Source of the DNA: Paracoccaceae bacterium
GTDB taxonomy: Bacteria > Pseudomonadota > Alphaproteobacteria > Rhodobacterales > Rhodobacteraceae
Reading direction: 5' to 3'
Length of the DNA stretch: 32,000 bases
NCBI GenBank assembly: GCA_965221815.1
Contig: OZ244915.1
Coordinates: 694,119 to 726,118, forward strand
The notes beneath the pieces are model-generated. The model ran no database searches and had not been told where the DNA came from. It saw only the letters and a program-made list of their open reading frames with translations. Below are positions 436-25,930 of this stretch, in pieces; positions within the stretch are counted from its first letter, which is position 1, and each line of letters begins with the position of its first letter. A program made the position numbers and the translations under genes.

Positions 436-581
436 CCACTCTCAAGATGAGCTAGGGGTACGCAAGGGGTCAAGAAAAGATAATGACACGACAATCGGAA
501 ATCACCGAAAAGTTTTCAACCGATGTTGGCCAAAAATCCAAAAATCACCGTTTCAAACGAAAGATGTTAAAGATGGGTTAA
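436..581. repeat. Mid-GC repeat, copy A (146 bp), immediately 3' of the P450-fusion gene; copy B is at 6466-6580
   Basis: The shared blocks are ccactctcaagatgag..aggggt.cgcaagggg...acgacaatcggaaatcaccgaaaa...gaacgaaa.atgttaaagatgggttaa. Copy A carries an extra ~30 bp internal segment. The P450 stop codon (578-580) lies inside the last bases of the repeat. Confidence 0.85.
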
Positions 582-2611
582 GCGGGCAATTGGTTGATCT
601 GTTTGTGGATGTAGATCTTTTGCTTTTCGGTCACCGAGAGAGTCGGGAAAGGTGAAATCTTCACGGCTTGATCCCTTGATTGAGGGACAAACTCATAATG
701 ATGAGCAACAGTCATGATATTCAAAATCAATTTTAACTGCGCCCAAGTGAAACCATTACAGGTATGGGTACCCAAACCGTAAGGACAATATTCGATTTTC
801 CGATGCTCACGCCGTGGCGGAAGATAACGGTCGATATCAAACTTGAGCGGCTCAGGAAAACATGACTCCATGTAATGGCACGCAGTTTGCACGATATGCA
901 CGCGATTTCCAAGAGGTAACGCATAGTCCTCAATCGTGCAGGAATTAGAAATGTTTCGAACTTGCATTGAGACAACAGGATACAGGCGCAAACATTCCAT
1001 CAAGAAACGACGTGTAATATCGAAACGTTCTGCGGAAAAACTCTCTTTCTCGATTTTTCCATTTTTTATCACATTATGGGATTCCTCACGAATTTTTGAA
1101 GCGATATCTGGTTGACGGGCCAATTCGATGAGTGCAAATCCAAAAACATCCCCGACATACATACTTTGCAAAAGAGGTGCGGCTGCGAGCATGAAAGGCA
1201 GATTTTGTTCAGGGAGAAATTGTGGATCACTTTCATGCAAACTGAAGAGGTCATTGGCCAGTTCGCTTATCGCATGCGTACGCATCATCATTGGCGTATG
1301 ATTCTGCTCAATCTGTTGTACAAATGTTTGTAATAGCCTAAACCGCCGCTTCATTTCCGGTGTGCGGGCAAAAAATTTTGGAATGATATTGCCGACTAGG
1401 CTGATTGAGGCTCTCTCCTTGAATGCTATAATGTCTTTAAAAATATCCTGGCAATCAGCGTTGACTAGTATCTGAGTCATCTGCATATTGATCATCAGCC
1501 GTGAAAATTCACGCACACCGAATGCTTGTCCTGGACTCAATTGGTGAGTCTTGAGGAATTTCAATGCCAAACCATATATCTCATCAATGCGCTCATAAAA
1601 TCTTGTTTTGGTATAAACCTGACTAAATATCTTACGTAGCCGGAAATGATCGGCACCATCAAGAGAAGTGATGAGACCGCTAGCCCCGTAAGCCTCTTCC
1701 AACTGACGAAAATAGTTTCCAGATGTCATGTACAAGCGGGCATTCCGTTGACACCATGCATTGACTTTGGGGCCAGAAATAAAGATAAACGGTTCCTTGA
1801 ACGGTGGTTTAAACTGGTAAACTGGACCATACTTCTCCGTAAGATCAGCAAACATTGCAGGCATATTCCCATGATGCGCGTACGCGCTCATGATACTGCC
1901 GATTGACGGGATAGTCGGAATTCTCTTGGAGAGAGGCGTCTTACGAAAACTTGGAGAAATGACCGTTTCTTGAACACTTGAAAAGATTGCACGACTAATC
2001 AATTCGACATCGCAAAGCCACTTGATCCGCTCTTCTTCCCTTTCCGAAATATCAAATATGAAGCGTAGAACATCGCAAGTTTGGAGTAGACTTACGATCA
2101 GCGAATCTCTTGGATCGGGAATTGTATCGGTGTAGATAACTTCTGCAATCCGTGACTTCACGTACTTCCAGGCAGTTTCATTCTCGGAAATACTGTGCAT
2201 TTCCGTGTACCAGAGTGAGTTGTTGATCGCGTAGAACCCCCCCGAATAGTAAGAGAAAATTCCTATTTTCACTAATCGTTTGAGTGTTAAATCAACAATC
2301 AATTCCGAATGTTGTGCAAGATCTTCGATCCAATAGCCCGTCGTCCGCTTTTCTCGACTGGAAGCAATCGAATTCAAGCAGAAGTCCAGTATCGAATCAC
2401 CTGTTTCATTTTGATTGATGACAAACATTGAATTTTCATCGGTATCAATTCGCCCATGAAGAGACAGATCTGCAAGCACCGCCCCAACAACTGCGCAATT
2501 CAGAGTCCAGCCACTCACTTGGTAGAAGTAGCCACTATGCTCATTGAGAATCATCACCAGGAAATCTTCCAAGAGATTCAACGAGCGTTTTTCTGTATCG
2601 ATGTCCAACAT
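578..2611 (-). CDS. Fusion protein: N-terminal GPP34/GOLPH3/Vps74-like domain + C-terminal cytochrome P450
   Basis: A 677-aa ORF on a lower-GC islet. Residues ~1-215 fit the GPP34 pattern (LLEDFLVMILNEHSG, AVVGAVLADLSLHGRID, DPRDSLIVSLLQTCDVLRFIF). Residues ~235-677 are a P450, with K-helix ExxR (ECLR), a PERF-like FDIDRY and the Cys-ligand loop PYGLGTHTCNG. Confidence 0.88.
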   Translation of the reverse strand: MLDIDTEKRSLNLLEDFLVMILNEHSGYFYQVSGWTLNCAVVGAVLADLSLHGRIDTDENSMFVINQNETGDSILDFCLNSIASSREKRTTGYWIEDLAQHSELIVDLTLKRLVKIGIFSYYSGGFYAINNSLWYTEMHSISENETAWKYVKSRIAEVIYTDTIPDPRDSLIVSLLQTCDVLRFIFDISEREEERIKWLCDVELISRAIFSSVQETVISPSFRKTPLSKRIPTIPSIGSIMSAYAHHGNMPAMFADLTEKYGPVYQFKPPFKEPFIFISGPKVNAWCQRNARLYMTSGNYFRQLEEAYGASGLITSLDGADHFRLRKIFSQVYTKTRFYERIDEIYGLALKFLKTHQLSPGQAFGVREFSRLMINMQMTQILVNADCQDIFKDIIAFKERASISLVGNIIPKFFARTPEMKRRFRLLQTFVQQIEQNHTPMMMRTHAISELANDLFSLHESDPQFLPEQNLPFMLAAAPLLQSMYVGDVFGFALIELARQPDIASKIREESHNVIKNGKIEKESFSAERFDITRRFLMECLRLYPVVSMQVRNISNSCTIEDYALPLGNRVHIVQTACHYMESCFPEPLKFDIDRYLPPRREHRKIEYCPYGLGTHTCNGFTWAQLKLILNIMTVAHHYEFVPQSRDQAVKISPFPTLSVTEKQKIYIHKQINQLPA

Positions 2612-2690
2612 AACAATGATTCATCTAGACTGAACAATTTATATTTATAAAACGAATAGTTAATAGAATACAATATACAATAGCCTCCCG
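2612..2690 (-). promoter_or_regulatory. AT-rich native upstream region of the P450-fusion gene (candidate promoter), cut off by GC-rich foreign DNA at ~2690
   Basis: Only ~80 bp of AT-rich sequence (ttgtatattgtattctattaactattcgttttataaatataaattg, reverse complement) separates the ATG from an abrupt switch to GC-rich DNA. No promoter boxes can be assigned with confidence. Confidence 0.25.
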
Positions 2691-2846
2691 CAGCAATTTC
2701 TGCTCATTCCGGGTTCAGCCCGTTTGGTGCAGCCATTTGGCGGATCGTTTGGGTCCGGCACAGCGCATCCGGGCGGCGGAATCGTCGCGGGTTGATGGGC
2801 TGGCCATGTGGGGATGAACTTTGAAGATGACGTTGGGGTGAGGGGC

Positions 2847-3005
2847 TCACAGGCGGGGTTTAGGGTTCGGGGAGGATGTCTTTGAGGGCGGGCGTCCCAA
2901 GGTGCGGCCCTGTTTGCGGGCCGATTTCAGTCCATCCCGTGTCCGTTCTGAGATCAGTCGGCGTTCAAATTGCGCGATGACGGCGAAGACATGAAGCACC
3001 AGCTC
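2847..3005 (-). pseudogene. Serine recombinase (resolvase/invertase) fragment
   Basis: The reverse-strand translation ELVLHVFAVIAQFERRLISERTRDGLKSARKQGRTLGRPP matches the conserved A.FER.LI.ERT..GL..A...G...GRP segment of resolvases. There is no N-terminal catalytic domain and no HTH. Confidence 0.6.
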
Positions 3006-3009
3006 CCCC

Positions 3010-3709
3010 GTGGCTGAGCTGGTCTTGTGGCTCTCTTTTTGGGGCCGGCCGGCTGGGTTTGGGTGGTTTCCATTTGCCGATCGGTTTTTGGGAGACCCGA
3101 TGATAGGCGCGGTGGGTGCGGTCCGGTTGCATGCAGGCGGCGATGCGGGCCATGGCGTTGCTCACAAAGGTGGCGCAGCTGTGGGTGAAGGTGAGGAGCC
3201 TGTCCTCGAATCCTGCAAAGACGGCGGTGAGGGCGTTTTTCTGGTTGGCCCGGAGACCGCCGCGTGTCTGCCGTGTGTCCGATCCGTTGATCAGTCTCTC
3301 GCAGTCATTGGACATCAGCCGTGCCCGGGCGATCAGCGTCAGTCCGGCGGTGAGTTCCTGTTGGACCCCGCGCAGGCTCTGGGCGTGGAAGGCTTCCATC
3401 GTGAGGGTCTGTTTGACGGTCTTGTCGAGCTCTTCGATCGACCAGCGTTGGTGATACAGGTCGGCGAGGCTCTGCGGGGAATAGGTCTGTGCATTCAGGA
3501 GCGTGGTGACCAGGATCCAGGGGGATGCGGGGGCTTTGATCACACGAATCCGGCGCGGTTCTGTGTCGCTTGTTGTGGCTGTCAAGGTGAGACCTGTGTC
3601 CTGCAGATCACTGCGGATGATCTGATCAATGTGGGTATCGGCCTGGCGGCGGATGCGGAAGACGGCATGAAGCCCGTTGTCGATATGGTGCGCGAGCAGG
3701 GCCCGGGAC
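3010..3709 (-). pseudogene. IS4-family DDE transposase, C-terminal two-thirds (element 'IS4-X'); its N-terminal part continues at 5290-5470 across a nested IS
   Basis: The translation reads ...LLAHHIDNGLHAVFRIRRQADTHIDQ...RIRVIKAPASPWILVTTLLN...LADLYHQRWSIEELDKTVKQ (the Y..RW.IE..fK.lK motif of IS4 transposases). It is interrupted at 3709/3710 by the Tn5-like element. Confidence 0.75.
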
Positions 3710-5289
3710 CTGTCACTAGGCCACAGTTGACACTGTCATCGACTGTTGTCGCTTGAATGACCTGTAGGCAGCGGCTGTCATCAGCATGTATTTCATTCCT
3801 TTCCTGATCTTCTCGGTCCCGGGCAGCGGTTGGCGCCTTGACGGGATGAATCCGACAGTGCGTCCGACATCAATGGCGGCCTGGCGAATGGTGAGGTCAT
3901 CGCAAGGCGGGGCCCGGGTATCGGTGAATTTGTATTGGTGTTACATGTCGATAGACAGGGCAGTGAGCTCGTCTTCGTCGAAGACGTCGCGGGCGGGACG
4001 GTCCGGCTCGGCCCTGGCGGCCCGTTGGATATCAAAGACCCGCCAGGCCATGATGGCATCGAAAGCCAGGCAACGGCGCAGATCGTCGGCCTCATCAAGG
4101 CGGCGGTTCTCGATACGGGTCTGCGGCTTCAGGGTCTTGAAGTCTTCCTCAATCGCCCAGCGGGTGGCTTGCTGGTCTCGGTGGCGAGGACGGCGTTCCG
4201 GCTGGGGGTTCAGGGAATGGAGCCTGAATCCCCGTTCCAGCCGGGTGTCCACACCGGGCCGTTCGGCACCTCACTGGCGATCCCGATGGTCTCGGGTTGG
4301 GCACCGGTTGTCGTCACAATCCCATCCGCCCTGTCGGCCCGACTCGCGCCGCTGTGCACGAAGGCCCGCTCACCGCGGACAGTCCCGTCGCCATCAAGGA
4401 TGCAGACCTGGTGGGTCTGTGACCCCTTTCGACCGGATCAAGGCCGGTGAGGCCGCCCAGGTCCGCGTAGCGCTAGCCACACGGGCCATCCGCATCTCCA
4501 CCGTGGCGTCACGCGCCGGGCGGGGCCCGGGTCTCGCCTTGCGACCACGTGAGGCCGTGATGCCGCCGCCCGGCATGGCAACGCACCAGAATCCCGGCGG
4601 CCTCCGGGGCCTTGGCCTGGGCCCTGAACATCGCCCAGAGATCGCCTTCCCGGTCGCAGACCGCGATGATCCGGGTGCCGGGGCGGATCCCGCATCGGTC
4701 TGCGGGTCACCGGTCCGGCGCGGCCTGTCTGTCTCTCCGGTCATCCAGCACGGATCACCGGCGGGACGTTGGCACAGACGCCGGCGCCACGCCGCCTCGA
4801 GGGGACGCATCCAGACCATCGGCCCGACCTCCGCACCGGCATACACCCCTGACACCCGTCCTGCCATCTCCCAGCCCGCCGCCACGTAACAGCTGCCCCG
4901 CTGCGCGGCATTCACATAGCTGTACGCCAGAACCGGGCGCACGCCATGGGCGGCGGCCCAGTCGTCCGCCAGACGCACCGTCACTTGCCCCAGCACATGG
5001 CTGGCCAGATTGGGCACCCGCAGGCCCGGCAGGAGCAAAAACCGTGAGTTGTTGACCACCCGGCGCAGATTGGCAACCCGGGCCCGATCACACCCGCCCA
5101 CATAACCATCCCGGGCCGCCTGATGCCAGCTGGCCAGATGGAAGGTCAGGCCCCCGATACGGCCCAGACCGGCCTCAGCCGCATCCGCCAGCCACGCCAT
5201 CGTATCAGCACTGAATTGTCGCATGCCTATCTGCATGCGAATCAAATGACCTCAACAAAGATACGGTGTCAAGTGTGGACCAGTGACAG
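3710..5289 (-). mobile_element. Tn5/IS50-like IS4-family element, copy 1 (decayed), with terminal inverted repeats and a 9-bp target duplication
   Basis: IR at 3710-3740 is ctgtcactaggccacagttgacactgtcatc. The reverse complement of 5261-5289 is ctgtcactggtccacacttgacaccgtat. The flanking 9-mers are gcccgggac (3701-3709) and gcccgggag (5290-5298). Internal remnants include VCDREGDLWAMF (second D), RWAIEEDFKTLK (E motif) and the C-terminal GRTVGFIPSRRQPLPG. Several frameshifts and an in-frame stop are present. Confidence 0.85.
4846..5236 (-). pseudogene. DUF4338 (DruA-like) N-terminal module of Tn5-like element copy 1
   Basis: MQIGMRQFSADTMAWLAD...RVVNNSRFLLLPGLRVPNLASHVLGQVTVRLADDWAAAHGVRPVLAYSYV...CYVAAGW carries the NNSRFLiLP / VpNLAS / DW...P.L signature of DUF4338. 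The ATG lies 53 nt inside the IS end, the same spacing as in copy 2 (12302 vs 12355). Confidence 0.75.
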
Positions 5290-5470
5290 GCCCGGGAGAC
5301 GTATCCCCGGTCATAAACGATCACATCATCGGGTCTGAGCAGACGGGTATGATGGCGGGCCAGGGCGCGTTCGTCGCCGCCCGGGACGAGTGCCACATCA
5401 TCGGGCAGCTTGTCCTGCAAGCGATACAGGCAGCTGACCAGGCCCTGGGGGTCGGCGGCGGCCGGGGCTG
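5290..5470 (-). pseudogene. IS4-X transposase N-terminal part (first catalytic D region)
   Basis: ...LLRPDDVIVYDRGYVSRA (the DRGY motif). Removing 3710-5289 and one 9-bp duplication joins it in frame to ...LLAHHIDNGLHAVFRIRRQ at 3700 and downward. Confidence 0.75.
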
Positions 5471-6475
5471 GGTGGTGCCGATGTGCTGCCATCCGGCCGC
5501 CTTGTCGGCGCGGCCCTGAAACCGCGCGGTCTCGACAAAGGTCTCGATCAGAACCGGACGGTCATGGTACTTGTCCTGCCAGTCATCGGCCAACTGCCGG
5601 GCCGCCAGGCCCAGGGCGGTCGCGGCGAGATTCGGCACGCGCACCCCGTCGAAAATCACGAAGCGCGAATTGACCACAACGAGATGACGGGTCTTGTTCT
5701 TCTGCGCGTGGCTCCAGCCGATCAGGCTGTCCCGACAGCGCAGATTGCGCGTCATCGCCGCGAACAGCAGACACCCCAGGATCCGCTGCTGCTGATCGCA
5801 GATCAAAGACCTTCATCTGACAGCCGAACGGATGCTTGTCGCCGAGATAGTGATGACAGTCGACCGACGCATTCCAGATCTTCGCCGCCGCGGGACGCGC
5901 CACCCGCTGGAGCATGATCGGCTGAAGATCCGCCAGCGAAGCGGTCACAGGGGGTCTTCCGGATCGCCAGACGCAGATCCACCGCGTCCAGGCCGGACGC
6001 CCGTGTCTTCACACGATTCACCGGCAGGGTCAGGATGCCCATCTCCTCCAGGCGCTCGAGGGCCCCGAGGCACGCCTGGAACTTCGGGCGACCATCGGGA
6101 TTGCGCCATTTGAGCGTCGCGGAGATCACGGCGGGTGGACCCGCTGTCGTGGCCCCCGGCCTCTGTCATCTGTGTCTGGAGGACAGGAACGCCCGGATCG
6201 GCCAGGACGGAGATCAGCCGATGGCCGTCCGCCTGGCACCCCTGTGGGGGAAGATGGGTCGCCATCCCCGTTCTGATGCCCGCGCCCGGACGATCGATTC
6301 CACTTCGGTCAGGCCGGCATATGCCCGCCACCAGCAAAACCTCCTCAATCCGCCGACAGACGGACGCCCATGTCTTCCTCCCGGCGACTCGGCACCAGCC
6401 AGTGTGTGATCCGCCGGGATCCATCGGGCGCGGTGCCGGTCTGTGTGGCACGCATGAACAGGACCCCACTCTCAA
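5470..6475 (-). pseudogene. Full-length-type DUF4338 (DruA-like) gene of IS4-X, split over three frames
   Basis: Three pieces are visible. LKWRNPDGRPKFQACLGALERLEEMGILTLP comes from ORF 5803..6129. IWNASVDCHHYLG comes from ORF 5583..5948. RILGCLLFAA...RDSLIGWSHAQKNKTRHLVVVNSRFVIFDGVRVPNLAATALGLAARQLADDWQDKYHDRPVLIETFVETARFQG comes from ORF 5321..5806. Confidence 0.75.
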
Positions 6476-6580
6476 GATGAGTCAGGGGTCCGCAAGGGGG
6501 AAGGGAAATACAATGATACGACAATCGGAAATCACCGAAAATTGACTGTTTTGAACGAAAAAATGTTAAAGATGGGTTAA
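6466..6580. repeat. Mid-GC repeat, copy B (115 bp), 26 bp 3' of the RND gene stop
   Basis: See copy A (436-581). Orientation is the same and the position relative to a minus-strand lipid gene is the same. It is bounded on the far side by a different IS fragment. Confidence 0.85.
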
Positions 6581-6605
6581 TGTCTACTGCACGAAACGCA
6601 TCAGA

Positions 6606-8933
6606 TCATATGACCTTTTTCGCCGGATCCACCGGTAAATTCTTGATGCGGTCCAAGGCAACAAGGAGAGGCGGAAACAAGAGAAAATCAGCGGCCAGTG
6701 CAATTACTACCGTAATTCCAACCAGAGTACCAAGTGTTTGATTGGTCGCTAGGTCGGAGAGCCCAAAGACCAAAAAACCAATAGCGAAAATCAAGGTTGT
6801 GGTCAAGAGTGGCCCACCGACCATACGAAAAGTCGGTGCAATTGCATCCCGTGGCTGTAGTCCCTCGGCGCGTGACCTTAGATATTTTGACATGATATGA
6901 ATCGTGTCATCTACAATAATGCCAAAAGCAATGGCGGTCACGATAGAGGCAGCCACACTGACAGTTCCAACAGCAAATCCCCAGATTGCCATCGCCATGA
7001 CCGCCGGCAAGAAGTTGGGAATCAAGCTGAGCAGCCCCAATCGGACGCTCTTAAAAATATATACGAGAATCAACGAAACCACTGACATTGCTGCAATAGT
7101 ACCAATGAGCATTCTCTCAATATTTAGAATCACGGAATAGGCACCGATAATCGTCACCCCTGTAGCCATGGTATGGATTTCGGGTGTATTCTCCTGCAGC
7201 CACTGCGACGCTCTCTGGTCAAGTTCAATTTGTTCCCGTACTGACAATTCATCAATTACTGCAGTCAACCGAGAGGATGACCGTTCAAAGTTTATACGCT
7301 GATTCAGGTCGAGTCCCACCGGCAGCGAGAATTCATAGAGTAACAGATACTGTGCTGCCAGATCAGAATTTTCAGGAAGACTGTCAGGATTGTCGATATC
7401 CGTACGCAAATTGCGGTTCAGCCGCTTCATGATATCTGCAATGGAAGTGACATGCGAAACCTCCGGCTGCGTGCGGAGCCAACTGGCAAATGAATCCACG
7501 CGCTGCAGATAGTCAATATCCGTAACGCCGCCCTCACGTCCAGAATCCAGCGAATACTCAAATACGTCAAGGCCAGAAAATCTCTCGCTGATGAAATCAG
7601 CTGATTGACGCAACTCATTTGCCTCATTCAAAAGCTTCAGATTATTGTCATTCAACTCGATTCGTGCAATTCCAATTGCGCTGAACATTGTTATAATAAC
7701 AAATGCCCCGATGAGAATACGACTCTTTGCAACAACAAAGCTCGCGAGTTTTGTGAAGAGTTCAGCCTGTTTTGTCGACCCGGCTTTGACCCGCATTGGC
7801 ATAACGCACATCATAGCTGGCAATAGCGTCACACTATAAATGAAGGCGCACATAGATCCAAAGGCGACAATATTTCCTAAGACTTGGAAGGGCGGCATGT
7901 CCGAAAAATTCAGGCTGAGAAATCCAATGGCGGTGGTGACTGATGTCAGAAAGATTGGACGTAGGTTAACTTGCAGCGCATGACGTGTTGCAGCTCTGCG
8001 GTCCTTGCCCTCTCGCATTCCGTCCATCATTCCCTGGATCAGATGTACAGAATGTGCGACCGCAATTGCCATCAAAACGAAGATTGCCCCCCCGCTCTCA
8101 CCATAGAATTTCAGGCCGACCCATCCGGCAAATCCCATTCCTGAGGTCATTACTGTTGCTAATACTGCGATAATGCCGAGGACACCCCAAGCTGAACGCA
8201 GGACGATAGTAGCGACCGCAATCATTGCCAAGAGCACGGCTGGGCCCAGAACAGAAGAATCGTGATTCAAGGCGTTGCGTATTTCCTGATCAATCAGCAG
8301 TTCACCATAGATGTGGTATTCTGTATCTGGGTTCAATTCAGATTGCGTTTTAATAATTTCTCGCAGCGTTTCGACCGTTCGGACTTTGCTTTCCTGGCGA
8401 TTCTCTTCTGGAACGACCAGGCTGACAACGAGGCCACCGAGACCGCCATCACGAGAAACGAAGCGCCCCCGTGTTTCCATGGAATTAAGGGCGATTTCCT
8501 GAACGCGCGCAATGGCAAGATCATCGAGCGAAGCGGCATCCTCGACAAGGGGATCAACCAAAAGGTCATCACCAATTCCTTCGGAATGCGAGTAATTGGT
8601 CAGCGAATCAACGCGTGTTGCGAAAGGCGTATTCCACAAAGCATCGGTTAGCTGCTCAATTATAACCAGAGCATGACGCGAGAAGATGGACTCACCTGGG
8701 GGATCAACGACCACGAGCACCGTATCAGAGACTGCGTATGTGTCTTCGAAACGCTCCAGATTGACGAGATGTGGGTCATTTTCGCTGAAGTGATTGCGTA
8801 TGCCAACATCGACGACAATGAGGTTTTGAAGCCCGGCAGCAACTGCCACAGCGAGCAAGAGTGAGGCTGTGGCCACACGCCAAGGCCGATTAACAATAAG
8901 GTCAAGAAAGTGAGCCATGACAAAAGCCATCAT
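6606..8933 (-). CDS. RND-superfamily exporter of the MMPL/HpnN/COG1033 type (sterol-sensing-domain-like TM bundles)
   Basis: A 775-aa ORF with a two-fold architecture: TM1, a large soluble loop and a 5-TM bundle, repeated twice. Hydrophobic blocks include GPAVLLAMIAVATIVL, AIAVAHSVHLIQG, FLPAVMAMAIWGF and AFGIIVDDTIH. Size and layout are typical of MMPL/HpnN-like lipid exporters. Confidence 0.85.
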   Translation of the reverse strand: MMAFVMAHFLDLIVNRPWRVATASLLLAVAVAAGLQNLIVVDVGIRNHFSENDPHLVNLERFEDTYAVSDTVLVVVDPPGESIFSRHALVIIEQLTDALWNTPFATRVDSLTNYSHSEGIGDDLLVDPLVEDAASLDDLAIARVQEIALNSMETRGRFVSRDGGLGGLVVSLVVPEENRQESKVRTVETLREIIKTQSELNPDTEYHIYGELLIDQEIRNALNHDSSVLGPAVLLAMIAVATIVLRSAWGVLGIIAVLATVMTSGMGFAGWVGLKFYGESGGAIFVLMAIAVAHSVHLIQGMMDGMREGKDRRAATRHALQVNLRPIFLTSVTTAIGFLSLNFSDMPPFQVLGNIVAFGSMCAFIYSVTLLPAMMCVMPMRVKAGSTKQAELFTKLASFVVAKSRILIGAFVIITMFSAIGIARIELNDNNLKLLNEANELRQSADFISERFSGLDVFEYSLDSGREGGVTDIDYLQRVDSFASWLRTQPEVSHVTSIADIMKRLNRNLRTDIDNPDSLPENSDLAAQYLLLYEFSLPVGLDLNQRINFERSSSRLTAVIDELSVREQIELDQRASQWLQENTPEIHTMATGVTIIGAYSVILNIERMLIGTIAAMSVVSLILVYIFKSVRLGLLSLIPNFLPAVMAMAIWGFAVGTVSVAASIVTAIAFGIIVDDTIHIMSKYLRSRAEGLQPRDAIAPTFRMVGGPLLTTTLIFAIGFLVFGLSDLATNQTLGTLVGITVVIALAADFLLFPPLLVALDRIKNLPVDPAKKVI

Positions 8934-12355: not shown

Positions 12356-12364
12356 GTCTGGGTC

Positions 12365-12475
12365 TCCGCCATCCCGATGTCTTGCCGATCCGATTTGGCC
12401 TTGTCATGCCGTGACTTGGGAAGAGCATGGGTGACGTGGGCTGTCTTGTGGACCCAGCCGCGCGGCTCCCGGGTG
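12365..12475 (-). pseudogene. IS256-family transposase, upstream fragment of the copy at 10370-10719
   Basis: The reverse-strand translation is WVHKTAHVTHALPKSRHDKAKSDRQDIGMAETQ. After removal of 10720-12355 and one TSD copy, it joins in frame to TATAFDVFVTSDG. Confidence 0.75.
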
Positions 12476-12526
12476 GTGGGGCAGACATCCCGCAGGGCTG
12501 CCCAGACACCCGGGGCCCCGTCGTCG

Positions 12527-12740
12527 GTGGCCAGGGTGGTTTCACTTTCCGGGCCCGGCTCACATCAGGGCGCTTTGACAACGTCTGGGCCCAACGGACC
12601 CACAGGCGGCGACATGCCAGCGCCTGTCCCGCCGCGGCCAACGACAATCGCACGCCTCTTGCCAGGGCCGCCTGATTCGCCGAATGAAACCGATCAGGAA
12701 TCAACCAGGGTCCAAACCCAGCCATAGGGGAATCACTCCC
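12527..12740 (+). mobile_element. IS-A right-end fragment (transposase tail + right terminus), 91 bp upstream of and co-oriented with the SMT gene
   Basis: Homologous to 18325-18538. It ends with ...gggtccaaacccagccataggggaatcactccc (12740). Confidence 0.8.
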
Positions 12741-12830
12741 GAGCAGGTACACAAACTTGATCGCCGCGACCGGGTGCGGTAAGATCCGTGGATTGCAGTG
12801 CCCCAATGACGTGGCGTCTGCTAAAACCTT

Positions 12831-13883
12831 ATGGCAGTATGGATTTCTAAGAATATGTTCCGCCTCATTTCCAAAAATGACAACCGCTCGCTTGAACAAC
12901 TTTCCCAGGCTGAAGTAAAATCTGTAGCCGACGAATACCAAGCGATTTATGATGTTGGCGAGGATGAAAGAAAAAAACAGTACAGTTCATTCATAAATCA
13001 TTATTACGATCTGGCGACTGATTTTTACGAATTCGGATGGGGTCGGTGCTTTCACTTCGCTCCCCGCCACCGGAACGAAAGCTTCAAGGATTCCCTGATC
13101 AGGCACCAACATTTTCTTGCTGATCAGCTGGCACTTGAACCGGGAATGCAGGTGCTTGATCTCGGTTGCGGTGTCGGTGGGCCGTTGAGCAATATCGCTC
13201 ACTATTCGGGTGTCAACATAGTCGGTCTTAACAATAACGCCTATCAAATCGAGCGTGCCAAGCTGCATACTAAGGACGTCAGTACCCAATGTCGCTTCAT
13301 CAAGGCCGATTATATGCAGATTCCCGAAAAAGACGATTGCTTCAACGCTGTCTATGCCATCGAAGCGACCCCTCACGCACCGGATCGAACAAGACTTTAC
13401 CGGGAAATTTTACGGGTCTTGCGTCCGGGCGCGCGTTTCGCCAGCTACGAGTGGTGCCTGACCGATAAGTTTGATGCAGTCAACACTAGGCATCAGCGAA
13501 TCGTAGACGATATAATGAGAGGTAACGCACTTCCTGATATTCCGAGCACGTCGGAAATTGACGCCGCTTTGCAATCAGCCGGATTCGAACTTCTGGATAC
13601 GCAAGACCGAGCCGAAGAGGCAGATCGGCAAACTCCTTGGTATCGCCCATTGCAGGGGCGTGACTTTTCTCTTTCCAGTATTCCGCGCACACCATGGGGT
13701 CGCGCTCTGGTAAACTTGACTTTGCGGGCAGGGGAAGCCGTGCAGGTGTTTCCAAAAGGGTCTCGTGCGGTCAGTACGTTTCTCAACAGGGGGGCAGACG
13801 CACTGGTCGAAGGGGGCAAATCAGGGATTTTTACGCCTATGTATTTCGTGTTGGCCCGTAAACCTTTGAATTCGGGCGATTAA
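12831..13883 (+). CDS. Sterol C-24 methyltransferase (ERG6/SMT-family) homologue, SAM-dependent
   Basis: A 350-aa ORF that is collinear with yeast ERG6 as I recall it. It shows DFYEFGWGRCFHF (SMT region I), LDLGCGVGGP (SAM-binding), YAIEATPHAP (region III), ASYEWCLTDKFD (region IV), IPWY-like TPWYRPL and the C-terminal GGKSGIFTPMYFVLARKP. Confidence 0.92.
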   Translation: MAVWISKNMFRLISKNDNRSLEQLSQAEVKSVADEYQAIYDVGEDERKKQYSSFINHYYDLATDFYEFGWGRCFHFAPRHRNESFKDSLIRHQHFLADQLALEPGMQVLDLGCGVGGPLSNIAHYSGVNIVGLNNNAYQIERAKLHTKDVSTQCRFIKADYMQIPEKDDCFNAVYAIEATPHAPDRTRLYREILRVLRPGARFASYEWCLTDKFDAVNTRHQRIVDDIMRGNALPDIPSTSEIDAALQSAGFELLDTQDRAEEADRQTPWYRPLQGRDFSLSSIPRTPWGRALVNLTLRAGEAVQVFPKGSRAVSTFLNRGADALVEGGKSGIFTPMYFVLARKPLNSGD

Positions 13884-14042
13884 GGGAGCGCTACAAAATA
13901 TATGCTCTGCCTGTCACCATATGCCGGAGTGCCTTAAGCATTGGGGCTTATATACTTGAGCCTCTTGCACAATTATCGCGGTTCCGGCGGCCGTGGTCGG
14001 TCATCCGCTTTGGCCGGCCTGCCGGAGCCGGAACCGGCGGCG

Positions 14043-15164
14043 TCAGATCGTGAGCCGCATCAGCCAGTGGACAGTCAGGGCCAGCACGCCGAAGAACAGG
14101 TGGCAGGCGACCTTGAGGTTCCCCCGCACCCGGACATGGCGTCCTCCGTAGGAATCCTTCAGGGCGGAGTTCACCCTCTCGACGTTCGACCGCTGCCTGT
14201 AGCGCACGCGGTCGTGGCGGACCTGGCCCGCCCGGCGCTGGGCGAGCGCCTCCCTCGCGAGGCCCGCCTTCAGCGCCGCGTCCCGGCGGGGGTTGGCGTC
14301 GATGATCGCCACCCGTCCCGCCAGTTGGGCGTGGACGCCGATCTCCCGCGAGTCGTCGGCGGCGTCCATCAGCTCGTAGCAGTGGTCGATCCGCTCGGCA
14401 GTCATCGTCGCCAGCGGGATCGCCGCCTGGCTGTCGTGCCGCGACGCCGAGGTGAGGATACAGCTCACCGGGATGTCCCCGTCGGCGGCGTCTCTATGCA
14501 TTTTGTAGCCACGCCAGCTCTCCCTGGACCCCTTCGCGTTGCGCTTCGTGCCCACGTCGCAGGCCTTCGGCAGCGCGGCCACCATCTCCGCCGTGGACAG
14601 GCCGCCCCGGAGCTGCCGTTCCAGACGGGTGGGCTCCCTGACCAGCCGCTCGCCTTTCCTCGGGCGGCCCCGCCTCCGCTTCCGCTCCGCCTCCGGCTTC
14701 GGCGCGGGCCTCTCCCGTCCCACGATCGCCGTCGAATCCCGGGATACGTGGCCGACGACCGAGCCGTCATAGGCGGCCCTCACCAGCGCCCCGTGCATCC
14801 GCTCGGGGAGCCGGGTCTCCGCGAACCCCGCGAAGGCGCGGGAGAACGTCGACTCGCTCGGCACCTCCGACACGCGGCACCAGCCGCAAAGCCGCCTCAG
14901 CGTCGGGTCGTAAAGCCGCCTGTCGATCAGGGCCCGCGTGGTCGAGAGGTCCCAGACCGCCTTGGCCACGAACGCGCGCGCCCGGGCATTCCGGTCGGCG
15001 GGAGGGGGCCCGACGCCGCGGTGGTCGTAAGGGAGATGCCGCTCCACAGGGGCCAGGTCCAGCACCGCCACGAACCTGCGGTGCGTCTCCCCCAGCGGAC
15101 CCACCTCCTCGGCCAGGAACAGGAAAGGGAGTGGTTCTCGTCTGGCGGACTCGTAAATTTTCAA
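14043..15164 (-). CDS. IS5/IS1182-type transposase (DUF772 N-domain + DDE_Tnp_1), true 5' end removed by the IS-A insertion at 15127
   Basis: A 373-aa ORF containing NARARAFVAKAVWDL...TLRRLCGW...PSESTFSRAF, GRPRKGE, D-rich catalytic blocks and the C-terminal YRQRSNVERVNSALKDSYG...VRGNLKVACHLFFGVLALT. The first 13 codons (MKIYESARREPLP) are encoded by the IS-A terminal repeat, so the annotated start is artificial. Confidence 0.75.
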   Translation of the reverse strand: MKIYESARREPLPFLFLAEEVGPLGETHRRFVAVLDLAPVERHLPYDHRGVGPPPADRNARARAFVAKAVWDLSTTRALIDRRLYDPTLRRLCGWCRVSEVPSESTFSRAFAGFAETRLPERMHGALVRAAYDGSVVGHVSRDSTAIVGRERPAPKPEAERKRRRGRPRKGERLVREPTRLERQLRGGLSTAEMVAALPKACDVGTKRNAKGSRESWRGYKMHRDAADGDIPVSCILTSASRHDSQAAIPLATMTAERIDHCYELMDAADDSREIGVHAQLAGRVAIIDANPRRDAALKAGLAREALAQRRAGQVRHDRVRYRQRSNVERVNSALKDSYGGRHVRVRGNLKVACHLFFGVLALTVHWLMRLTI

Positions 15165-15259
15165 CCTGTTGAAAACGCGTGGTTTTTTGAATCCTGATGG
15201 TGTGCGTTTGGGTGGTTTGGCGGAATTTTTGGAAATATCCCGGAATTTGACCTGATCGG

Positions 15260-16995
15260 CGGGTGCGGCTCAGATTTGTGGCTCATGCTGCAGCGCGCCA
15301 GTGGAAGAAGTCGGCGCCCCGGTTGTTCATCTGGCAGCACCGGATAGCCATGATTGCGTTGGCGCCGTCAACGGACCAGCGGCTGCCGCTTTTTTTGAGT
15401 CGATCGACTACAACGGTCCGGCAGCCGCCTTCGACGAGGCCGCTGCCGCAGGGGAGACCCTGCCGTGTATAGACATCGTAGCGCATGCGGTGCAGGTTGG
15501 GTCTGCAATAATTCACGAACGCCCTGATCGCGGGTGAGCTCTTGGCCAGTGTGGCAAGCGCCGCAAGGACCCGGGCTGCCTCACCGGCCTTGATCCGGGC
15601 CTTGATCCGGTCGAAAGTGGTCTGACGACGCACGGGGTCTTCCAACGTCTCCTTCAGGGCCTCCTGAAGCCTTTCCAGGACATGGAACAGATCGAGCACG
15701 AAGGTCAGGTGCATGCCGGCGAAGACCGTGCGCATCGTCTTTTCGATCCAGGCGGCGCCATCGGACAGGATCACCGCCTCCGCGCTGTCCAGCACACCGC
15801 GCCGCTGCGCCTCCCGCCTCACGCGGGCGGCAAACTCGGACATCCCACCGGTGGTGGGAGCCCGGGCGCTGTCGATCACTGATGATTGGGTGATACTCCC
15901 GGCAACGGCCTTGATCCGGCCCTTGGGGTCAGGCGCCACTTCACAGATGCGCAGCAGCTTGGCTTCGCGCGTCCGGGCTGTGCCATCCGCCTGTTTGCCG
16001 GCGCGCCCGGCAAGTTCGGCAGGCCGGATCGGCACGCCGGTCCCGTCAGCCGCCACCACCGGCCGGGTGGGAATCACCGCCGCCGGGGGGACATCCCTGC
16101 GCTCAAACGCGACCACTTCCCTGCCCAGCGCGCGGGCCAGCCTGTCAAACCGGGACCGGCTGACCCGGGTCCCGCTCAGCTCTTCAAGGAGCGTCACGGC
16201 GCGGCGACTGCCGACCTCCGCAGCGGCGGCCATGACCATCCGCTCGTAGCCCGATGTTGTTGTCCGCCCCTCAAGACGCAACGCGGCGTCCAGCGGGAAG
16301 AGGCCGGTGCGACAGGCCGAACAGCGGTAATGCCGCCGCGCCACCGTCACCTTGCCCAGGCGGGTCATATAGGTCTTGGGACGTTTGTCTCCCCAGCGCG
16401 CCATACGGCCCCCGCAATGGGGGCAGTGCGGGGGATCAAGGGCGTCATCCCGGGCTTCAAGCAGCAGTCGCAATTGGGCCGCTGCCGCGACCAGCGCATC
16501 ACCGCGCAGGGCGGTCTCGACGGCATCCAGATCAACCACTGTCGCGGCCAGTTCCTTCTCGAGCCGTGGCAGGAGATCAGGGGACCGCGCCGCGGACCCC
16601 TCATGCCCTGGCAACTCCGTCGTCGCCAGGCGGCGGCAGATCACCGTTCCATCGAAAATCCGGTATTCGAGGAAACCGTCCCCATCCTGGCGGATCAGCG
16701 GTCGGTTCAGCGCGGCCTCCGCGGCCGACAGACTCCGCAAATACGCGACCACCTCTGGATGCCTGAACTCCTGCTTTTTGTCCCGCTCTTTATCTTGAAC
16801 TGCCATCTGCCTGTGTCTCCTGACTGCCCTGTCGCCAAACCCAACCGGAGCCGTGATGCCGACTCTCCGTGTTCCTGTGGGCGGAAATGGACATAGATCG
16901 ATACAGAGACCGATACAAACCCGCTCCGACGGGCGCTGTCCGGATGTCAGGAAAAAGATCAGTCAGAGCGTGTCCCACAAATCTGAGCCGCACCC
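15260..16995 (-). mobile_element. ISKra4-family element IS-B, apparently intact, inserted into the 5' leader of IS-A
   Basis: The perfect 21-bp terminal inverted repeats are gggtgcggctcagatttgtgg (15261-15281) and ccacaaatctgagccgcaccc (16975-16995). The 8-bp direct repeat ctgatcgg occurs at 15252-15259 and 16996-17003. The uninterrupted target (gaatttgacccgatcggggtg) is visible in IS-A copy 3 at ~22631-22651, in reverse complement. Confidence 0.9.
15283..16806 (-). CDS. ISKra4-family transposase (only intact transposase ORF in the window)
   Basis: A 507-aa uninterrupted ORF. It has a Zn-ribbon-like CPHCGG...YRCSAC, the DDE-region blocks VAADGTGVP and VILSDGAAWI, and the C-terminal GLPCGSGLVEGGCRTVVVDRLKKSGSRWSVDGANAIMAIRC. 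Confidence 0.88.
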   Translation of the reverse strand: MAVQDKERDKKQEFRHPEVVAYLRSLSAAEAALNRPLIRQDGDGFLEYRIFDGTVICRRLATTELPGHEGSAARSPDLLPRLEKELAATVVDLDAVETALRGDALVAAAAQLRLLLEARDDALDPPHCPHCGGRMARWGDKRPKTYMTRLGKVTVARRHYRCSACRTGLFPLDAALRLEGRTTTSGYERMVMAAAAEVGSRRAVTLLEELSGTRVSRSRFDRLARALGREVVAFERRDVPPAAVIPTRPVVAADGTGVPIRPAELAGRAGKQADGTARTREAKLLRICEVAPDPKGRIKAVAGSITQSSVIDSARAPTTGGMSEFAARVRREAQRRGVLDSAEAVILSDGAAWIEKTMRTVFAGMHLTFVLDLFHVLERLQEALKETLEDPVRRQTTFDRIKARIKAGEAARVLAALATLAKSSPAIRAFVNYCRPNLHRMRYDVYTRQGLPCGSGLVEGGCRTVVVDRLKKSGSRWSVDGANAIMAIRCCQMNNRGADFFHWRAAA

Positions 16996-17121
16996 CTGAT
17001 CGGGGTGGAGTCGTTGGGTGTGTCTGCCGGATCAGGTCGCGTGTTCCCGAATGAAAACCCTCCATCATGGAGACCTCTGAGACGGAACACGCGGATGACC
17101 GATTGACACTCTGAAAAGACT

Positions 17122-18473
17122 TTTGCCAAGACCGATACGGACAGGGCGCAGGTGCGGCAGCGGATCGCGGACACCCTGCAGGCCGCGGCGACGCAGTTGC
17201 AGGATACGGGGCTCAAAGAGGATCTGGCCCGCGGGCTGTGGGGTCAGGCCTTTGCGGCGCGCGATGATCATGGGGACCGGTTGCAGATTGATGGGAAAAG
17301 TCCTCGCCAGGTGGCGGCCTCACCGGGTCAGGCGACGACCCTGTTCGGCACGGTGACCTTTCCGCGGGCACGGTCTCGCCCGTCCGGTGCGGGACCCTCC
17401 GGGGTGCCGACAGAGCCGATTCGGGGCCTGACCACGGGTGGGGACGGGCGCGGCGGCTGGTCTTGTGGCGGCGATCATGGCCAGCCGGCCGGCACGGGAT
17501 GCCGCGGATCTCTGGCAGCGGATCTGTGAGGCGGGTCCCGCAACGCGCAGTTTGATCCGGCTGACGGCCGAGGTGGGGCAGGAGTTTGAGGATCAGGCCG
17601 ATGATCGGCTGGAAGAGGTACGGGGCGATGAGAGCCGGCATGATGATGCAGTGGCCCTGCGGGTCTCGCGGGATGGCACGATGCTGCGGATGCCTGCGGA
17701 AGAGCGGGATGGACAGGCCATGGAACCGGGCTGGCGTGAGGCCACCTGCGGCGTTGTGGCCCAACAGGGCAGCGCGGGGACGATGCTGACACAGCGCACT
17801 TTTGCGCGGCGTCCCGAACCCGACCGGACCGGTCTGAAACGCCAGATCAGCCAGGAGGTGTGGCACGGAATACAGCCGGCGGCGGCGCAGGGTCGAGAGT
17901 TGAAGAGTGTCGCTATCGCCGATGGGGCCCGGGACAACGGGACGTGTCTGGAGAGTGTGACCCCGGACATCCGGCTCATCGCTGTCGGGCAGGCCGGCCA
18001 AGTCTCTCAAGGCCGCGGCCGATGCCGCTGACGGGGCCGAAAGTGCCAAGGGCACGGCGGGGTTCGACACACACAAGGCCCTCCTGACAGATGATCCCCA
18101 TTGCGTGGGCCCGGTGATCGATGCGTTGTGTGATCTCCGGCGAAAGAACCCAGGAAACAGTGAGATTACCACCGCCATCGGCACTGTCCGCAGCCCCCGC
18201 CAGCGGAGGCGTGATCGGGAGGCCGGCGATGCCGGCTCTCCCATCGGCAGCGATCCCAAGGAGGCGGCACACACAATGATCGTCACCACCCGGCTCAAGC
18301 GCAGCGGCCAGAGATGGGGTCGTGCCGGTGGCCAGGGTGGTCTCACTGCCCGGGCCCGGCTCACATCAGAGCGCTTTGACAACGTCTGGGCCCAACGGAC
18401 CCACAGGCGGCGACACGCCCAGGTCCACCTCTCGGCCAACGACAATCGCACGCCACTTGCCAGGGTCGCCTGA
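17122..18473 (+). pseudogene. IS-A transposase (ISKra4-like), start codon lost and multiple frameshifts
   Basis: Pieces lie in three frames (ORFs 17152..17529, 17438..18031, 18105..18473). The tail reads AAHTMIVTTRLKRSGQRWGRAGGQGGLTARARLTSERFDNVW. The GTG start seen in copy 3 is TTT here. Confidence 0.8.
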
Positions 18474-18709
18474 TTCGCCAAATGAAACCGATCAGGAATC
18501 AAGCAGGGTCCAAACCCAGCCAGAGGGGAATCACTCCCGGTCGGGCACAATATTGAATCTTGAAAGTAAATATGGCATCAAGATTAGTTGTAAATAGAAC
18601 CTGCAGAAATGCCATCTGATTGTTGAATCAGGTGGTTTGGAATAGATGACCTTTCATCATCGGTATCTTTCTTATTCTCGCTGTTATACAATTTGATTAA
18701 GGCACGGTC

Positions 18710-19789
18710 GTGGACAATTCTCAAACTTATCTGATTTCGGACAATCCCGTATTTGTTACCGGTTCTTCCGGTCATGTCGGGGCAAACCTGATTCGGCGAT
18801 TGCTGCTGGATGGGCAGAGAGTACGCGTTTTTGTACGACAGCAAAGCAAGAATGAAAGCCTTCAGGGCCTTGATGTCGAGACCGCCTATGGAGATCTTCG
18901 CAACCTGGACGAAGTCCGAAAAGCAATGGAGGGCTGCCAAGGCGTTTATCACGTGGCCGCTAAGGTTTCGACGATCAAGGGTAACCGCGCACATCGACGT
19001 GAAATTTTCGACTGTAATGTCATGGGCACACGTAACGTCTTGCAGGCAGCAAAGGAAACTGAGGCTGGTCGGACAGTGGTCACCGGCTCTTTCAGCGCAG
19101 TGGGCTACAATTTGGATAATCCATCTCAGCCCAGTAACGAGATGATGCCTTTCTACCCAATGGAACTGACAATGCCTTATGAGCGAAGCAAGTCATTTAC
19201 CGAACATGAATGCTGGCGAGCGGCAGCGACTGGTCAGGAGGTCATAGTCGCAACAAGTTGCGCGGTAGTTGGAGGCGCAGATTTCGTCCCGTCGAGATTG
19301 GGAAAAACCTTATGTGATTATGCCAATGGAAAGCTGCGCGCCTATATCGAAGGTGGCTTCGAGTTTGTCAATGTCCATGACCTTGTGCAAGGGCATATTC
19401 TCTGCATGCAAAAAGGAAGGTCAGGAGAAAAGTATATTTTTAGCACCGAATATAAAAAGATATCGGAAATCATTGGCCTATTTGAGGACATCACCGGTGT
19501 GCGACGCCCTCAGCGGCAGTTTCCGGCTGCTTTGATGCTGGCATTTTCTGAAGTTATAAGTGGATACCTGAGCCAGTTTCATCCTGACTTTCCACAACGG
19601 TTCACTCCCGGTGCCATCCGACTTCTCAAGAAATGCCGTCATGCCGACACCAGCAAAGCAAGACAGGAGCTCGGCTATCAACCGACATCCATTCGTCACG
19701 CCATCATTGATGCCTATACGTTTCATCACGCGCGCGGAGTGATCACCAATCCAAATGCCAAGCCGCCGCACAACGGGGATCATGATTAG
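18710..19789 (+). CDS. NAD(P)-dependent extended SDR (epimerase/dehydratase family; HpnA-like / 3beta-hydroxysteroid dehydrogenase-like)
   Basis: A 359-aa ORF with a GTG start. It has the Rossmann motif VFVTGSSGHVGANLIRRLL, the NVMGTRNVL block and the catalytic YxxxK (PYERSK). Overall collinearity matches HpnA-type proteins (LEGLDVE..GDL.D, LNGK..AY...G...V.V.D...GH). Confidence 0.85.
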   Translation: MDNSQTYLISDNPVFVTGSSGHVGANLIRRLLLDGQRVRVFVRQQSKNESLQGLDVETAYGDLRNLDEVRKAMEGCQGVYHVAAKVSTIKGNRAHRREIFDCNVMGTRNVLQAAKETEAGRTVVTGSFSAVGYNLDNPSQPSNEMMPFYPMELTMPYERSKSFTEHECWRAAATGQEVIVATSCAVVGGADFVPSRLGKTLCDYANGKLRAYIEGGFEFVNVHDLVQGHILCMQKGRSGEKYIFSTEYKKISEIIGLFEDITGVRRPQRQFPAALMLAFSEVISGYLSQFHPDFPQRFTPGAIRLLKKCRHADTSKARQELGYQPTSIRHAIIDAYTFHHARGVITNPNAKPPHNGDHD

Positions 19790-25929: not shown

Positions 25930-25930
25930 A

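Follow-up and report, generated by a model that had tools for sequence, protein, structure and literature searches.

Four intact genes, scattered among fragments of insertion sequences (ISs) in the genome of a Paracoccaceae bacterium, appear to be what is left of a sterol gene cluster that circulates among sponge-associated bacteria. They lie in a stretch of 32,000 nucleotides (contig OZ244915.1 of assembly GCA_965221815.1, positions 694,119 to 726,118 of the forward strand), to which we refer as the window. Comparison with relatives shows this locus to be, as judged by gene content, a leftover of such a cluster from which the ring-forming and demethylating genes are gone. Our favoured explanation, to which we assign a probability of roughly 0.6, is that ISs eroded the cluster and that selection kept the survivors as a sterol tailoring and export module. 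The survivors are the four long intact open reading frames (ORFs) of the first 20 kb, 6.5 kb in total: a GPP34-P450 fusion of the GPP34_L family (578..2611, minus strand, 677 aa), a resistance-nodulation-division (RND) permease of HAE3/MMPL type that is a putative sterol exporter (6606..8933, minus strand, 775 aa), a sterol C-24 methyltransferase (SMT) of ERG6/SMT type (12855..13883, plus strand, 342 aa) and an SdmB-like NAD(P)-dependent short-chain dehydrogenase/reductase (SDR) of 3-beta-HSD/decarboxylase-ketoreductase type (18710..19789, plus strand, 359 aa). All four ORFs are found where the first-pass annotation of the window had placed them, separated by spacers of 4.0, 3.9 and 4.8 kb.

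The case for a remnant comes from relatives in which the cluster is whole. A one-genome-per-species scan with the SMT alignment yielded 348 relatives, the best 80 of which were analysed; the scan also showed that the species of the window is not a GTDB representative. Almost all of these 80 are metagenome-assembled genomes (MAGs) of sponge symbionts from many phyla. In about 55 of the 80 loci the SMT flanks an operon of genes for an SdmB-type SDR, a Rieske protein of SdmA type, ERG24, CYP51 and a fused epoxidase-cyclase; 21 of the 80 have a GPP34-P450 gene no more than 10 kb from the SMT, and 10 have an RND gene of the window's type at such a distance. Together with 80 metagenome loci, these genome loci form the synteny tables used here. 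One IS-free sponge-metagenome contig (L085) carries eight genes contiguously in 14.3 kb, in the order SMT (plus strand), epoxidase-cyclase, CYP51, ERG24, Rieske and SDR (all minus strand), GPP34-P450 and RND (both plus strand), and no known relatives of the window copies are closer than its P450 (54% identity), RND (66%) and SDR (74%). Because L085 carries all eight side by side, the window corresponds to genes 1, 6, 7 and 8 of an eight-gene cluster. Another full cluster surrounds the nearest SMT (82% aa identity), in the Paracoccaceae locus L003.

Genes 2–5 of this cluster (epoxidase-cyclase, CYP51, ERG24 and the SdmA Rieske gene) have left no remnant that tblastn finds in the window, even at E≤1, in agreement with the first-pass statement that the window holds no cyclase or epoxidase. 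The core that defines the published clusters of steroid genes (ERG24, CYP51 and lanosterol synthase) is missing, and the flanking SMT and SdmB/'DFR'-type SDR are present. Where the SdmA Rieske gene comes next in relatives of the L006 type, the window has the C-terminal half of a TnpB gene (IS200/IS605; 19969..20586, minus strand). Gene order is also reshuffled, with the RND gene upstream of the P450 gene and the SDR on the strand of the SMT, as in the L006-type order. The first-pass annotation had set the co-occurrence of the four genes in a relative without the IS load as a test, and had counted their never occurring together as grounds for giving up its proposal. The 80 genome loci and L085 show that they do occur together, in L085 along with the core, and none of the other grounds that it had named applies either. 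Its sterol reading of the set thus stands, but not the notion of a purpose-built tailoring set: the genes are instead the remnant of a complete biosynthetic cluster.

A gene encoding a LolA-like protein of the DUF1329/TP_0789 family lies about 2.5–3.4 kb to the left of window position 1, beside ybgC, on a contig that reaches beyond the window (L084:15154-16026). DUF1329 homologues of 50–58% identity stand beside the RND gene in 10 of 14 RND-bearing metagenome loci. By this association, the protein probably belongs to the module as a fifth survivor, with the predicted role of a periplasmic lipid carrier.

The relatives offer several observations in their own right. In nearly all clusters of sponge symbionts, a single ORF of about 1130 aa encodes both squalene epoxidase and oxidosqualene cyclase (OSC) (e.g. 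L003:11024-14425; P0125-P0244), a fusion for which our literature search found no description. A 225-aa protein without a Pfam family is encoded beside the SMT in about 45 of the 80 loci (e.g. L003:8982-9659), and other recurring accessories are a FAD amine-oxidase-like gene and a second SMT paralogue (40–47% identity) adjoining GPP34-P450 (L003:6734-8149; L035:4848-5882; many of L085-L164); all three accessory genes are absent from the window. Two Paracoccaceae sterol clusters, L003 and L005, are 93–99% identical at the nucleotide level, with the SMT gene alone dropping to 71–86% (L003:10001-11035 vs L005:10001-11026), which looks like a gene-sized allele replacement. A metagenome cluster of about 51% GC (L087:2906-14654) comprises epoxidase-cyclase, Rieske, SDR, GPP34-P450, RND and DUF1329 genes, with no CYP51 or ERG24 between the cyclase and Rieske genes; reduced core variants therefore exist elsewhere too.

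Domain and motif evidence agrees with this assignment for the SMT. It matches Sterol_MT_C (PF08498) with 77.3 bits against a cut-off of 21.7 and Methyltransf_11 with 64.6 bits, its motifs DFYEFGWG and LDLGCGVGGP are both invariant across 30 homologues, and it is 61–82% identical to the SMTs that stand beside OSC, CYP51, ERG24 and SdmAB genes in sponge-symbiont loci. Accordingly, the ERG6-type call of the first-pass annotation holds, and the protein falls within the cluster-linked SMT family rather than outside the SMT clade. Its start is probably at 12855 rather than at the alternative ATG at 12831, because gene callers give the 342-aa product (P0001). An exact-sequence look-up returned no match for the 350-aa form of the SMT, for the SDR, whether begun with V or with M, or for the RND protein.

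The SDR has Epimerase and 3Beta_HSD domains and the motifs GSSGHVG (GxxGxxG) and YERSK (YxxxK), and shares 70–76% identity with its counterpart in relatives, the gene that opens the sterol core operon. Its best NCBIfam model is SdmB (NF052578), at 307.8 bits and hence under the equivalog cut-off of 600. An identity as HpnA was rejected at 238.4 bits for TIGR03466 (cut-off 367.65); the SDR is SdmB-like rather than the HpnA of the earlier description. The RND permease matches Pfam MMPL (PF03176) in two stretches with 109 bits, Patched-SSD with 24.1 (cut-off 23), Sterol-sensing with 21.9 (cut-off 22.3) and the HAE3 model TIGR00921 with 152, under the subfamily cut-off of 352. It is 66% identical to the copies in L085 and L141 and 65% identical to the L023 copy; there, no more than about 100 bp separate the gene from the GPP34-P450 gene before it. 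Orthology to HpnN (TIGR03480, 109 vs cut-off 752; NF052374, 40 vs 1100) and to BstA (NF045600, 18.3 vs 1400) was rejected. Model scores thus make it a predicted HAE3/MMPL pump that is an orthologue of neither HpnN nor BstA; the MMPL character and the fold resembling a sterol-sensing domain that had been proposed are confirmed, but the HpnN assignment is not.

These scores also bear on whether the set could serve hopanoids or some other lipid, with an HpnN-like pump and an HpnA-like SDR. Partial matches to both models are what this idea can draw on, but each falls far short of its cut-off, and SdmB outscores HpnA. Moreover, relatives embed the same genes among OSC, CYP51, ERG24 and SMT genes, which stand for sterol-specific steps, and an SMT requires the double bond of a sterol side chain. 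We consider a hopanoid role very improbable.

The 677-aa ORF at 578..2611 holds both Pfam domains, GPP34 (78 bits) and p450 (126 bits), and aligns with 18 family members; it thus has the GPP34_L architecture, and the fusion described by the first-pass annotation is real. The catalytic core of the P450 is present, with the heme cysteine C618 and the ExxR residues E539/R542 in invariant columns of the family alignment. Its nearest relatives are in L085 (54%), L086 (53%) and L023 (53%), in each case directly upstream of the RND gene. Among solved structures the best matches are CYP51 enzymes, at an E value of 3e-15 only; CYP51 and the steroid P450s of animals are the nearest, if distant, kin of the P450 domain. 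It was considered as the CYP51 of the cluster and rejected, with only 30% identity over 148 aa to the CYP51 of L003; in the same clusters, CYP51 is a separate gene.

That selection still acts on the four genes is suggested by what the ISs have spared. At least nine IS families invaded the island. As the first-pass annotation had stated, the spacers are IS wreckage, made up of fragments of IS4, IS110, IS256, IS4/Tn5 with DUF4338/DruA, ISNCY and IS481 elements and the TnpB half; an ISKra4 copy is the sole clearly intact IS gene, and an IS5/IS1182-like copy is maybe intact. The IS copies that broke up the cluster must postdate its genes; most of them are nevertheless fragments, and each of the four ORFs has kept its full length. 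In the repeat analysis, IS junctions lie 0–160 nt outside every ORF end and never within an ORF. Residues identical in all other members of a family are kept at 53 of 54 positions in the SMT, 120 of 125 in the SDR, 42 of 43 in the P450 and 133 of 138 in the RND (348 of 360 in total), and most changes in the window are conservative. Between two strains, the SMT and SDR genes together show 6 synonymous and 3–4 nonsynonymous substitutions, against a neutral expectation of 77% nonsynonymous (binomial P 0.002–0.013), and the P450 protein is identical on three contigs. Compared to L003, the SMT gives a dN of 0.098, a dS of 0.56 and an omega of 0.17; for SDR, P450 and RND, pairwise dN/dS to distant relatives is saturated. 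Intact ORFs amid younger, fragmented ISs, the conserved residues and the bias against nonsynonymous change therefore point to continued purifying selection. We read this as the four genes being still under purifying selection, with few substitutions behind that reading.

Base composition accompanies this picture. Gene islets of 43–50% GC alternate with spacers of 60–72% GC, and GC at third codon positions (GC3) is 0.50–0.52 for RND, SMT and SDR, 0.45 for P450, 0.52–0.57 for tolQ, tolB, pal and cpoB of the host and 0.74–0.90 for IS ORFs. As RND, SMT and SDR match host genes and IS ORFs lie higher, the compositional outliers are the IS elements, not the islets; the mosaic noted in the first-pass annotation is real, but its lower-GC islets are host-typical. 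Foreign low-GC DNA as the origin of the islets was ruled out on the same values. This indicates that RND, SMT and SDR look native and long resident, with the ISs as the foreign component.

Several points weigh against our favoured explanation. Among the loci fetched, the window proteins are the most divergent of their families, with mean identities below the family median for SMT (0.66/0.76), SDR (0.71/0.84), P450 (0.43/0.61) and RND (0.535/0.58), and in a relative-rate comparison the nearest neighbour was closer than the window protein to 96–100% of outgroups. Such divergence fits what may be a fast-evolving, AT-drifting, host-restricted lineage, but it could also be a sign of relaxed constraint. 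Five family-invariant positions are altered in the SDR and five in the RND, and the selection test between strains rests on 10 substitutions. Native promoters have been cut to 73–160 nt or less by IS ends. For a well-sampled sister lineage, with tol-pal genes 94% identical, the protein collection holds no SMT that exceeds 82% identity; the genes therefore seem dispensable there. SdmB without SdmA is an incomplete C-4 demethylase, and the functions given here for the proteins of this organism are predictions from sequence. Finally, the published hypothesis for GPP34-P450 concerns the binding of phosphatidylinositol 4-phosphate (PI4P) and evasion of phagocytosis, not sterol chemistry (PMC11706023).

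Part of this evidence is what one would expect of a dead relic, a pathway in the course of being lost whose four ORFs are pieces not yet hit and have no current function. The cluster has lost half of its genes, the region has collected ISs and tolerates insertions, and the branches of the window proteins are the longest in their families. Between strains, codon changes in the SDR are evenly divided, with 3 nonsynonymous and 3 synonymous, and the sister lineage appears to be without an SMT. A relic accounts poorly, however, for four ORFs that stay intact while at least eight later-arriving IS genes are fragments, for junctions that spare every ORF, and for the retained invariant residues, the departure from neutrality between strains and the unchanged P450 protein. 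We therefore judge a functionless relic to be unlikely, if still a serious contender, and prefer retention under selection.

Comparison of the strains gave a further observation. Synonymous divergence is 0.013–0.016 for SMT and SDR and 0.037–0.057 for tolQ, tolR, tolB and pal, about threefold lower in the island, with 6 synonymous changes where 22.6 were expected (Poisson P 4e-5; window vs L001 and L172). The island thus coalesces more recently than the backbone.

The GPP34-P450 gene is the survivor for which another function has been put forward. The published account finds the GPP34_L fusion exclusively in sponge symbionts, proposes a role in PI4P binding and escape from phagocytosis, and never mentions sterols (Microbiome 2025, PMC11706023). 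Extended to the window, the protein would be a PI4P-binding effector that blocks phagosome maturation, and its closeness to the SMT would be incidental. The proposal draws on this exclusive occurrence and on the fact that GOLPH3 of eukaryotes binds PI4P (PMC11706023), and the GPP34 domain is indeed detectably related to GOLPH3 and Vps74. Its genomic neighbourhood points elsewhere. In a reverse scan of Joint Genome Institute (JGI) metagenomes with GPP34-P450 as query, a sterol gene was found within 10 kb in 25 of the 40 loci of at least 15 kb that were counted; an SMT-family gene was present in 23, usually as an adjoining paralogue of 40–47% identity, an RND gene in 10 and a FAD amine-oxidase gene in 11. 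The chance expectation for 10 kb in a 3.5-Mb genome is about 0.6% per gene, and the SMT-centred scan likewise placed an SMT close to the fusion in 21 of 80 genome loci. In the closest relatives, GPP34-P450 and RND form a two-gene unit.

The residues of the lipid pocket can be read both ways. We take the PI4P-pocket residues of human GOLPH3 to be W81, R90, R171 and R174. W81 aligns with W35, which is invariant in the GPP34_L family, as the effector idea would have it, but R90 aligns with V or A, in a weak alignment (E 0.013) that stops short of R171 and R174. Inspection by eye revealed no obvious N-terminal signal peptide, and a heme enzyme that needs a redox partner would be an odd secreted effector. 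Taken together, we regard an effector function as quite improbable and favour an enzyme acting on sterols.

Whether the missing core genes persist elsewhere in the chromosome is a separate matter. ISs could have moved the epoxidase-cyclase, CYP51, ERG24 and SdmA genes to other sites in the 3.4–3.5 Mb chromosome, leaving a pathway that is complete but scattered and still makes C-24-alkylated sterols de novo. Around the island, strains do vary in which ISs they carry and in how these are laid out, P450 and RND are already reordered relative to L085, and one MAG combines lone SMT loci with a full cluster (L042, L060; both CBDBND01). Our search for a cyclase had low power: an epoxidase-cyclase of the 3,547,933-bp and 3,375,832-bp contigs was found neither among the best 120 cluster representatives listed nor among the members of the ten clusters opened, but the representatives listed hide other members, as the search for TolB showed, and a fast-evolving copy could rank lower. 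Even so, this result counts against a scattered pathway, as does the position of the SDR: this promoter-proximal first gene of the operon stayed behind, and a Rieske-ERG24-CYP51-cyclase block that moved away would have done so without it; nor do fragments mark a break point. One candidate for the missing genes, an 'Aestuariivita' core operon of about 50% GC (L171), was rejected because it belongs to another Rhodobacteraceae genome (2,583,471-bp contig). We think a complete, dispersed pathway improbable, though of the alternatives it deserves the most attention.

On the reading that we favour, the four genes suggest the following mechanism. With S-adenosylmethionine as donor, the SMT would methylate C-24 in the side chain of a delta-24 sterol. 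The SdmB-type SDR would act at C-3 of the A ring, in 3-beta-hydroxyl/3-keto chemistry, with its Rieske partner no longer adjacent. The GPP34 domain, as a lipid-binding module, would hold the P450 at the membrane, plausibly in place of the membrane anchor of eukaryotic P450s, and the P450 would oxidise the sterol; we guess at the side chain as its target because the gene often adjoins SMT paralogues. The proton-driven HAE3 RND pump, together with the LolA-like periplasmic protein, would then move the product out of the inner membrane. As no cyclase is present at the locus, the sterol substrate should come from elsewhere, either from relocated core genes or from the sponge or co-resident symbionts. 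Between imported sterols and relocated core genes we lean slightly toward import, and the odds that a cyclase is absent from the genome are a little better than even. A more specific proposal, that this dominant symbiont (1367x coverage) dropped de novo synthesis, remodels the sterols of the sponge or of its neighbours and hands them back, is tentative, and we hold it as a minority possibility.

The island sits between ybgC and tolQ of a Rhodobacteraceae/Paracoccaceae sponge symbiont. Its right border is the host backbone of tolQ, tolR (~25994-26407, ExbD/TolR Pfam match), tolA, tolB, pal and cpoB (25231..30826, plus strand); to the left of the window follow an IS66 element, the DUF1329/LolA-like gene, ybgC and ruvBAC (L084). 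TolB shares 98% identity with proteins from sponge-metagenome MAGs labelled 'Rhodobacteraceae/Paracoccaceae bacterium', with Roseobacter-group genera as further matches, so that the alphaproteobacterium suggested earlier from tol-pal can be placed in the Rhodobacteraceae, with sponge-symbiont MAGs as its relatives. In the sister lineage (tol-pal 94% nucleotide identity; L165:1-7500), tolQ is preceded by IS remnants and then by cobalamin genes, not by a sterol island. The short-read MAG contigs at this site (starts of L166-L170) all break about 100–500 bp upstream of tolQ.

An arrangement so rich in ISs might be an assembly chimera joined through repeats, as the first-pass annotation had cautioned. 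The assembly of sample ERZ25072152 does break at window positions 15204 and 22865, and short-read MAG contigs end about 500 bp before tolQ. However, window positions 1-15204 and 22865-32000 are reproduced at 100% identity by two contigs of that other sample, and the SMT protein is 100% identical on three contigs (3,547,933 bp at 1367x, one of more than 1 Mb and one of 55 kb). The 3.55-Mb contig represents a strain of about 2% backbone divergence with the same SMT-IS-SDR arrangement in the same direction toward tolB; the distance from SMT to tolB is 28 kb there and 15 kb in the window, and the IS content differs. These independent assemblies agree and therefore rule out a chimera except within 15204-22864, which is supported by the window's own contig and by the SMT-SDR link of the other strain. 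The GC3 of RND, SMT and SDR, if not that of P450 (0.45), also matches the flanking housekeeping genes. A chimera thus seems hardly credible, and we take the arrangement to be real.

The debris itself can be described block by block. The first block (2700..6465; GC 60–74%) contains an IS4 fragment (2965-3585) and DruA/DUF4338 and Tn5-type fragments (4394-5245, 5321-5806). The second (9006..12751) begins with an IS5-type end (9006-9061), followed by an IS110 C-terminal fragment (9244-9705), an IS256 fragment (10083-10694), an IS4/Tn5 fragment (10751-12184), a DruA fragment (11697-12302) and the outer end of a repeat that we call element E (12525-12751); a perfect 46-bp tandem duplication lies at 11704-11795, within the IS4/Tn5-DruA debris. 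Between SMT and SDR are the IS5/IS1182-like element (13941..15259, minus strand; 373-aa transposase ORF at 14043-15164, terminal repeat at 15131-15186) and the ISKra4-family transposase gene (15283..16806, minus strand, 507 aa; NF033572 at 232.5 bits vs cut-off 205), the latter missing from the sister strain L001. The right block (22644..25100) has an IS5-type end (22635-22769), an ISNCY fragment (23112-23876) and an IS481 fragment (24209-24916). Scans of the window found no Rfam families and no tRNAs.

Element E, defined by inverted-repeat pairs and alignment, is about 1.55 kb long at 16995..18550, where its end adjoins the upstream region of the SDR. An inverted copy at 21179..22643 brackets the SDR and the TnpB fragment together with the first; the two are 86–98% identical and flank the SDR much as the two ISs of a composite transposon would. 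The domain matches of the element include no transposase that is recognisably intact. Further ends occur at window positions 12525-12751 and 1-201, and the same end precedes the SMT by about 100 nt and the SDR by about 160 nt, in like orientation, where it may be the source of an outward-facing promoter for both genes. A second, low-GC repeat of about 140 nt (R3) follows both minus-strand genes, directly 3' of the P450 stop codon at 436..577 and about 30 nt past the RND stop codon at 6466..6605, both copies on the minus strand. They differ by one 32-nt indel, and R3 was not found in any locus fetched from another organism; it could be a miniature inverted-repeat transposable element, an IS end or a shared 3' element.

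The gene families, the cluster type and the GPP34-P450 fusion have already been published, and most of the biology is known. Sponge MAGs carry 'clusters of steroid genes' with signs of purifying selection and horizontal gene transfer (Kelly et al. 2022, PMC9531527), and for related sponge-symbiont SMTs that are clustered with sdmA, sdmB and OSC, methylation of desmosterol and of 24-methylenecholesterol has been shown in vitro (Brown et al. 2023, PMC10070321). The window shares with these clusters the SMT family, the SdmB/'DFR'-type SDR, the place of the SMT at the end of the core operon, the setting in sponge-associated Alphaproteobacteria and horizontal transfer among symbionts. Unlike them, it is without ERG24, CYP51, lanosterol synthase and SdmA, and its survivors are split by IS debris. 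GPP34-P450, RND and DUF1329 are not discussed in either paper, and the text of PMC10070321 mentions neither a P450 nor a transporter. With the published GPP34_L proteins (PMC11706023) the fusion has in common its two-domain architecture, its length of about 675 aa and its ecological restriction; different from that account, the gene is here a recurrent neighbour of SMTs, the RND pump and sterol core genes.

Similar likenesses and differences hold for other systems. As with SdmA/SdmB of Methylococcus capsulatus, the best model of the SDR is SdmB, and its orthologues in relatives adjoin a Rieske gene of SdmA type, but the window SDR stays under the model cut-off and has no SdmA partner in the window. 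Like HpnN and the BstABC system of Methylococcus, the RND protein is an inner-membrane permease encoded beside triterpenoid genes, and its LolA-like DUF1329 partner recalls the multi-part Bst system, though that partner belongs to a different family and model scores make the permease orthologous to neither. Chlamydial SMTs, discussed by Brown et al. 2023 (PMC10070321), offer another case of a host-associated bacterium with no cyclase at the locus, and for these authors it raised the methylation of host-acquired sterols. In contrast to chlamydiae, comparison with relatives shows the cyclase-less state to be secondary here, through decay of a full cluster, and P450, SDR and exporter accompany the SMT. 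Two things appear to be unreported: a cluster of this kind that ISs have eroded and that has lost its cyclase, here in a symbiont of high abundance, and the close linkage of GPP34-P450 with the genes for an SMT, an RND pump and a LolA-like DUF1329 protein; a full-text literature search combining GPP34, sterol and sponge found no relevant paper.

The locus is a clear example of an IS invasion in which selection can be read from the ORFs that remain whole. It is also a case of an SMT outliving its cyclase, which makes the tailoring of imported sterol by a symbiont testable in a very abundant organism. The linkage data give GPP34-P450 an alternative, testable function and suggest a candidate route of sterol export other than Bst and HpnN; if the sterol reading is true, GPP34-P450 would be a sterol enzyme and not a phagocytosis effector. 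The use of 24-alkylated steranes in Neoproterozoic rocks as sponge markers depends on who makes the sterols, and symbiont SMTs already complicate it. Should the tailoring of imported sterol be true, bacteria could shape the unusual alkylated sterols of sponges, and with them the sterane biomarkers, without owning a cyclase.

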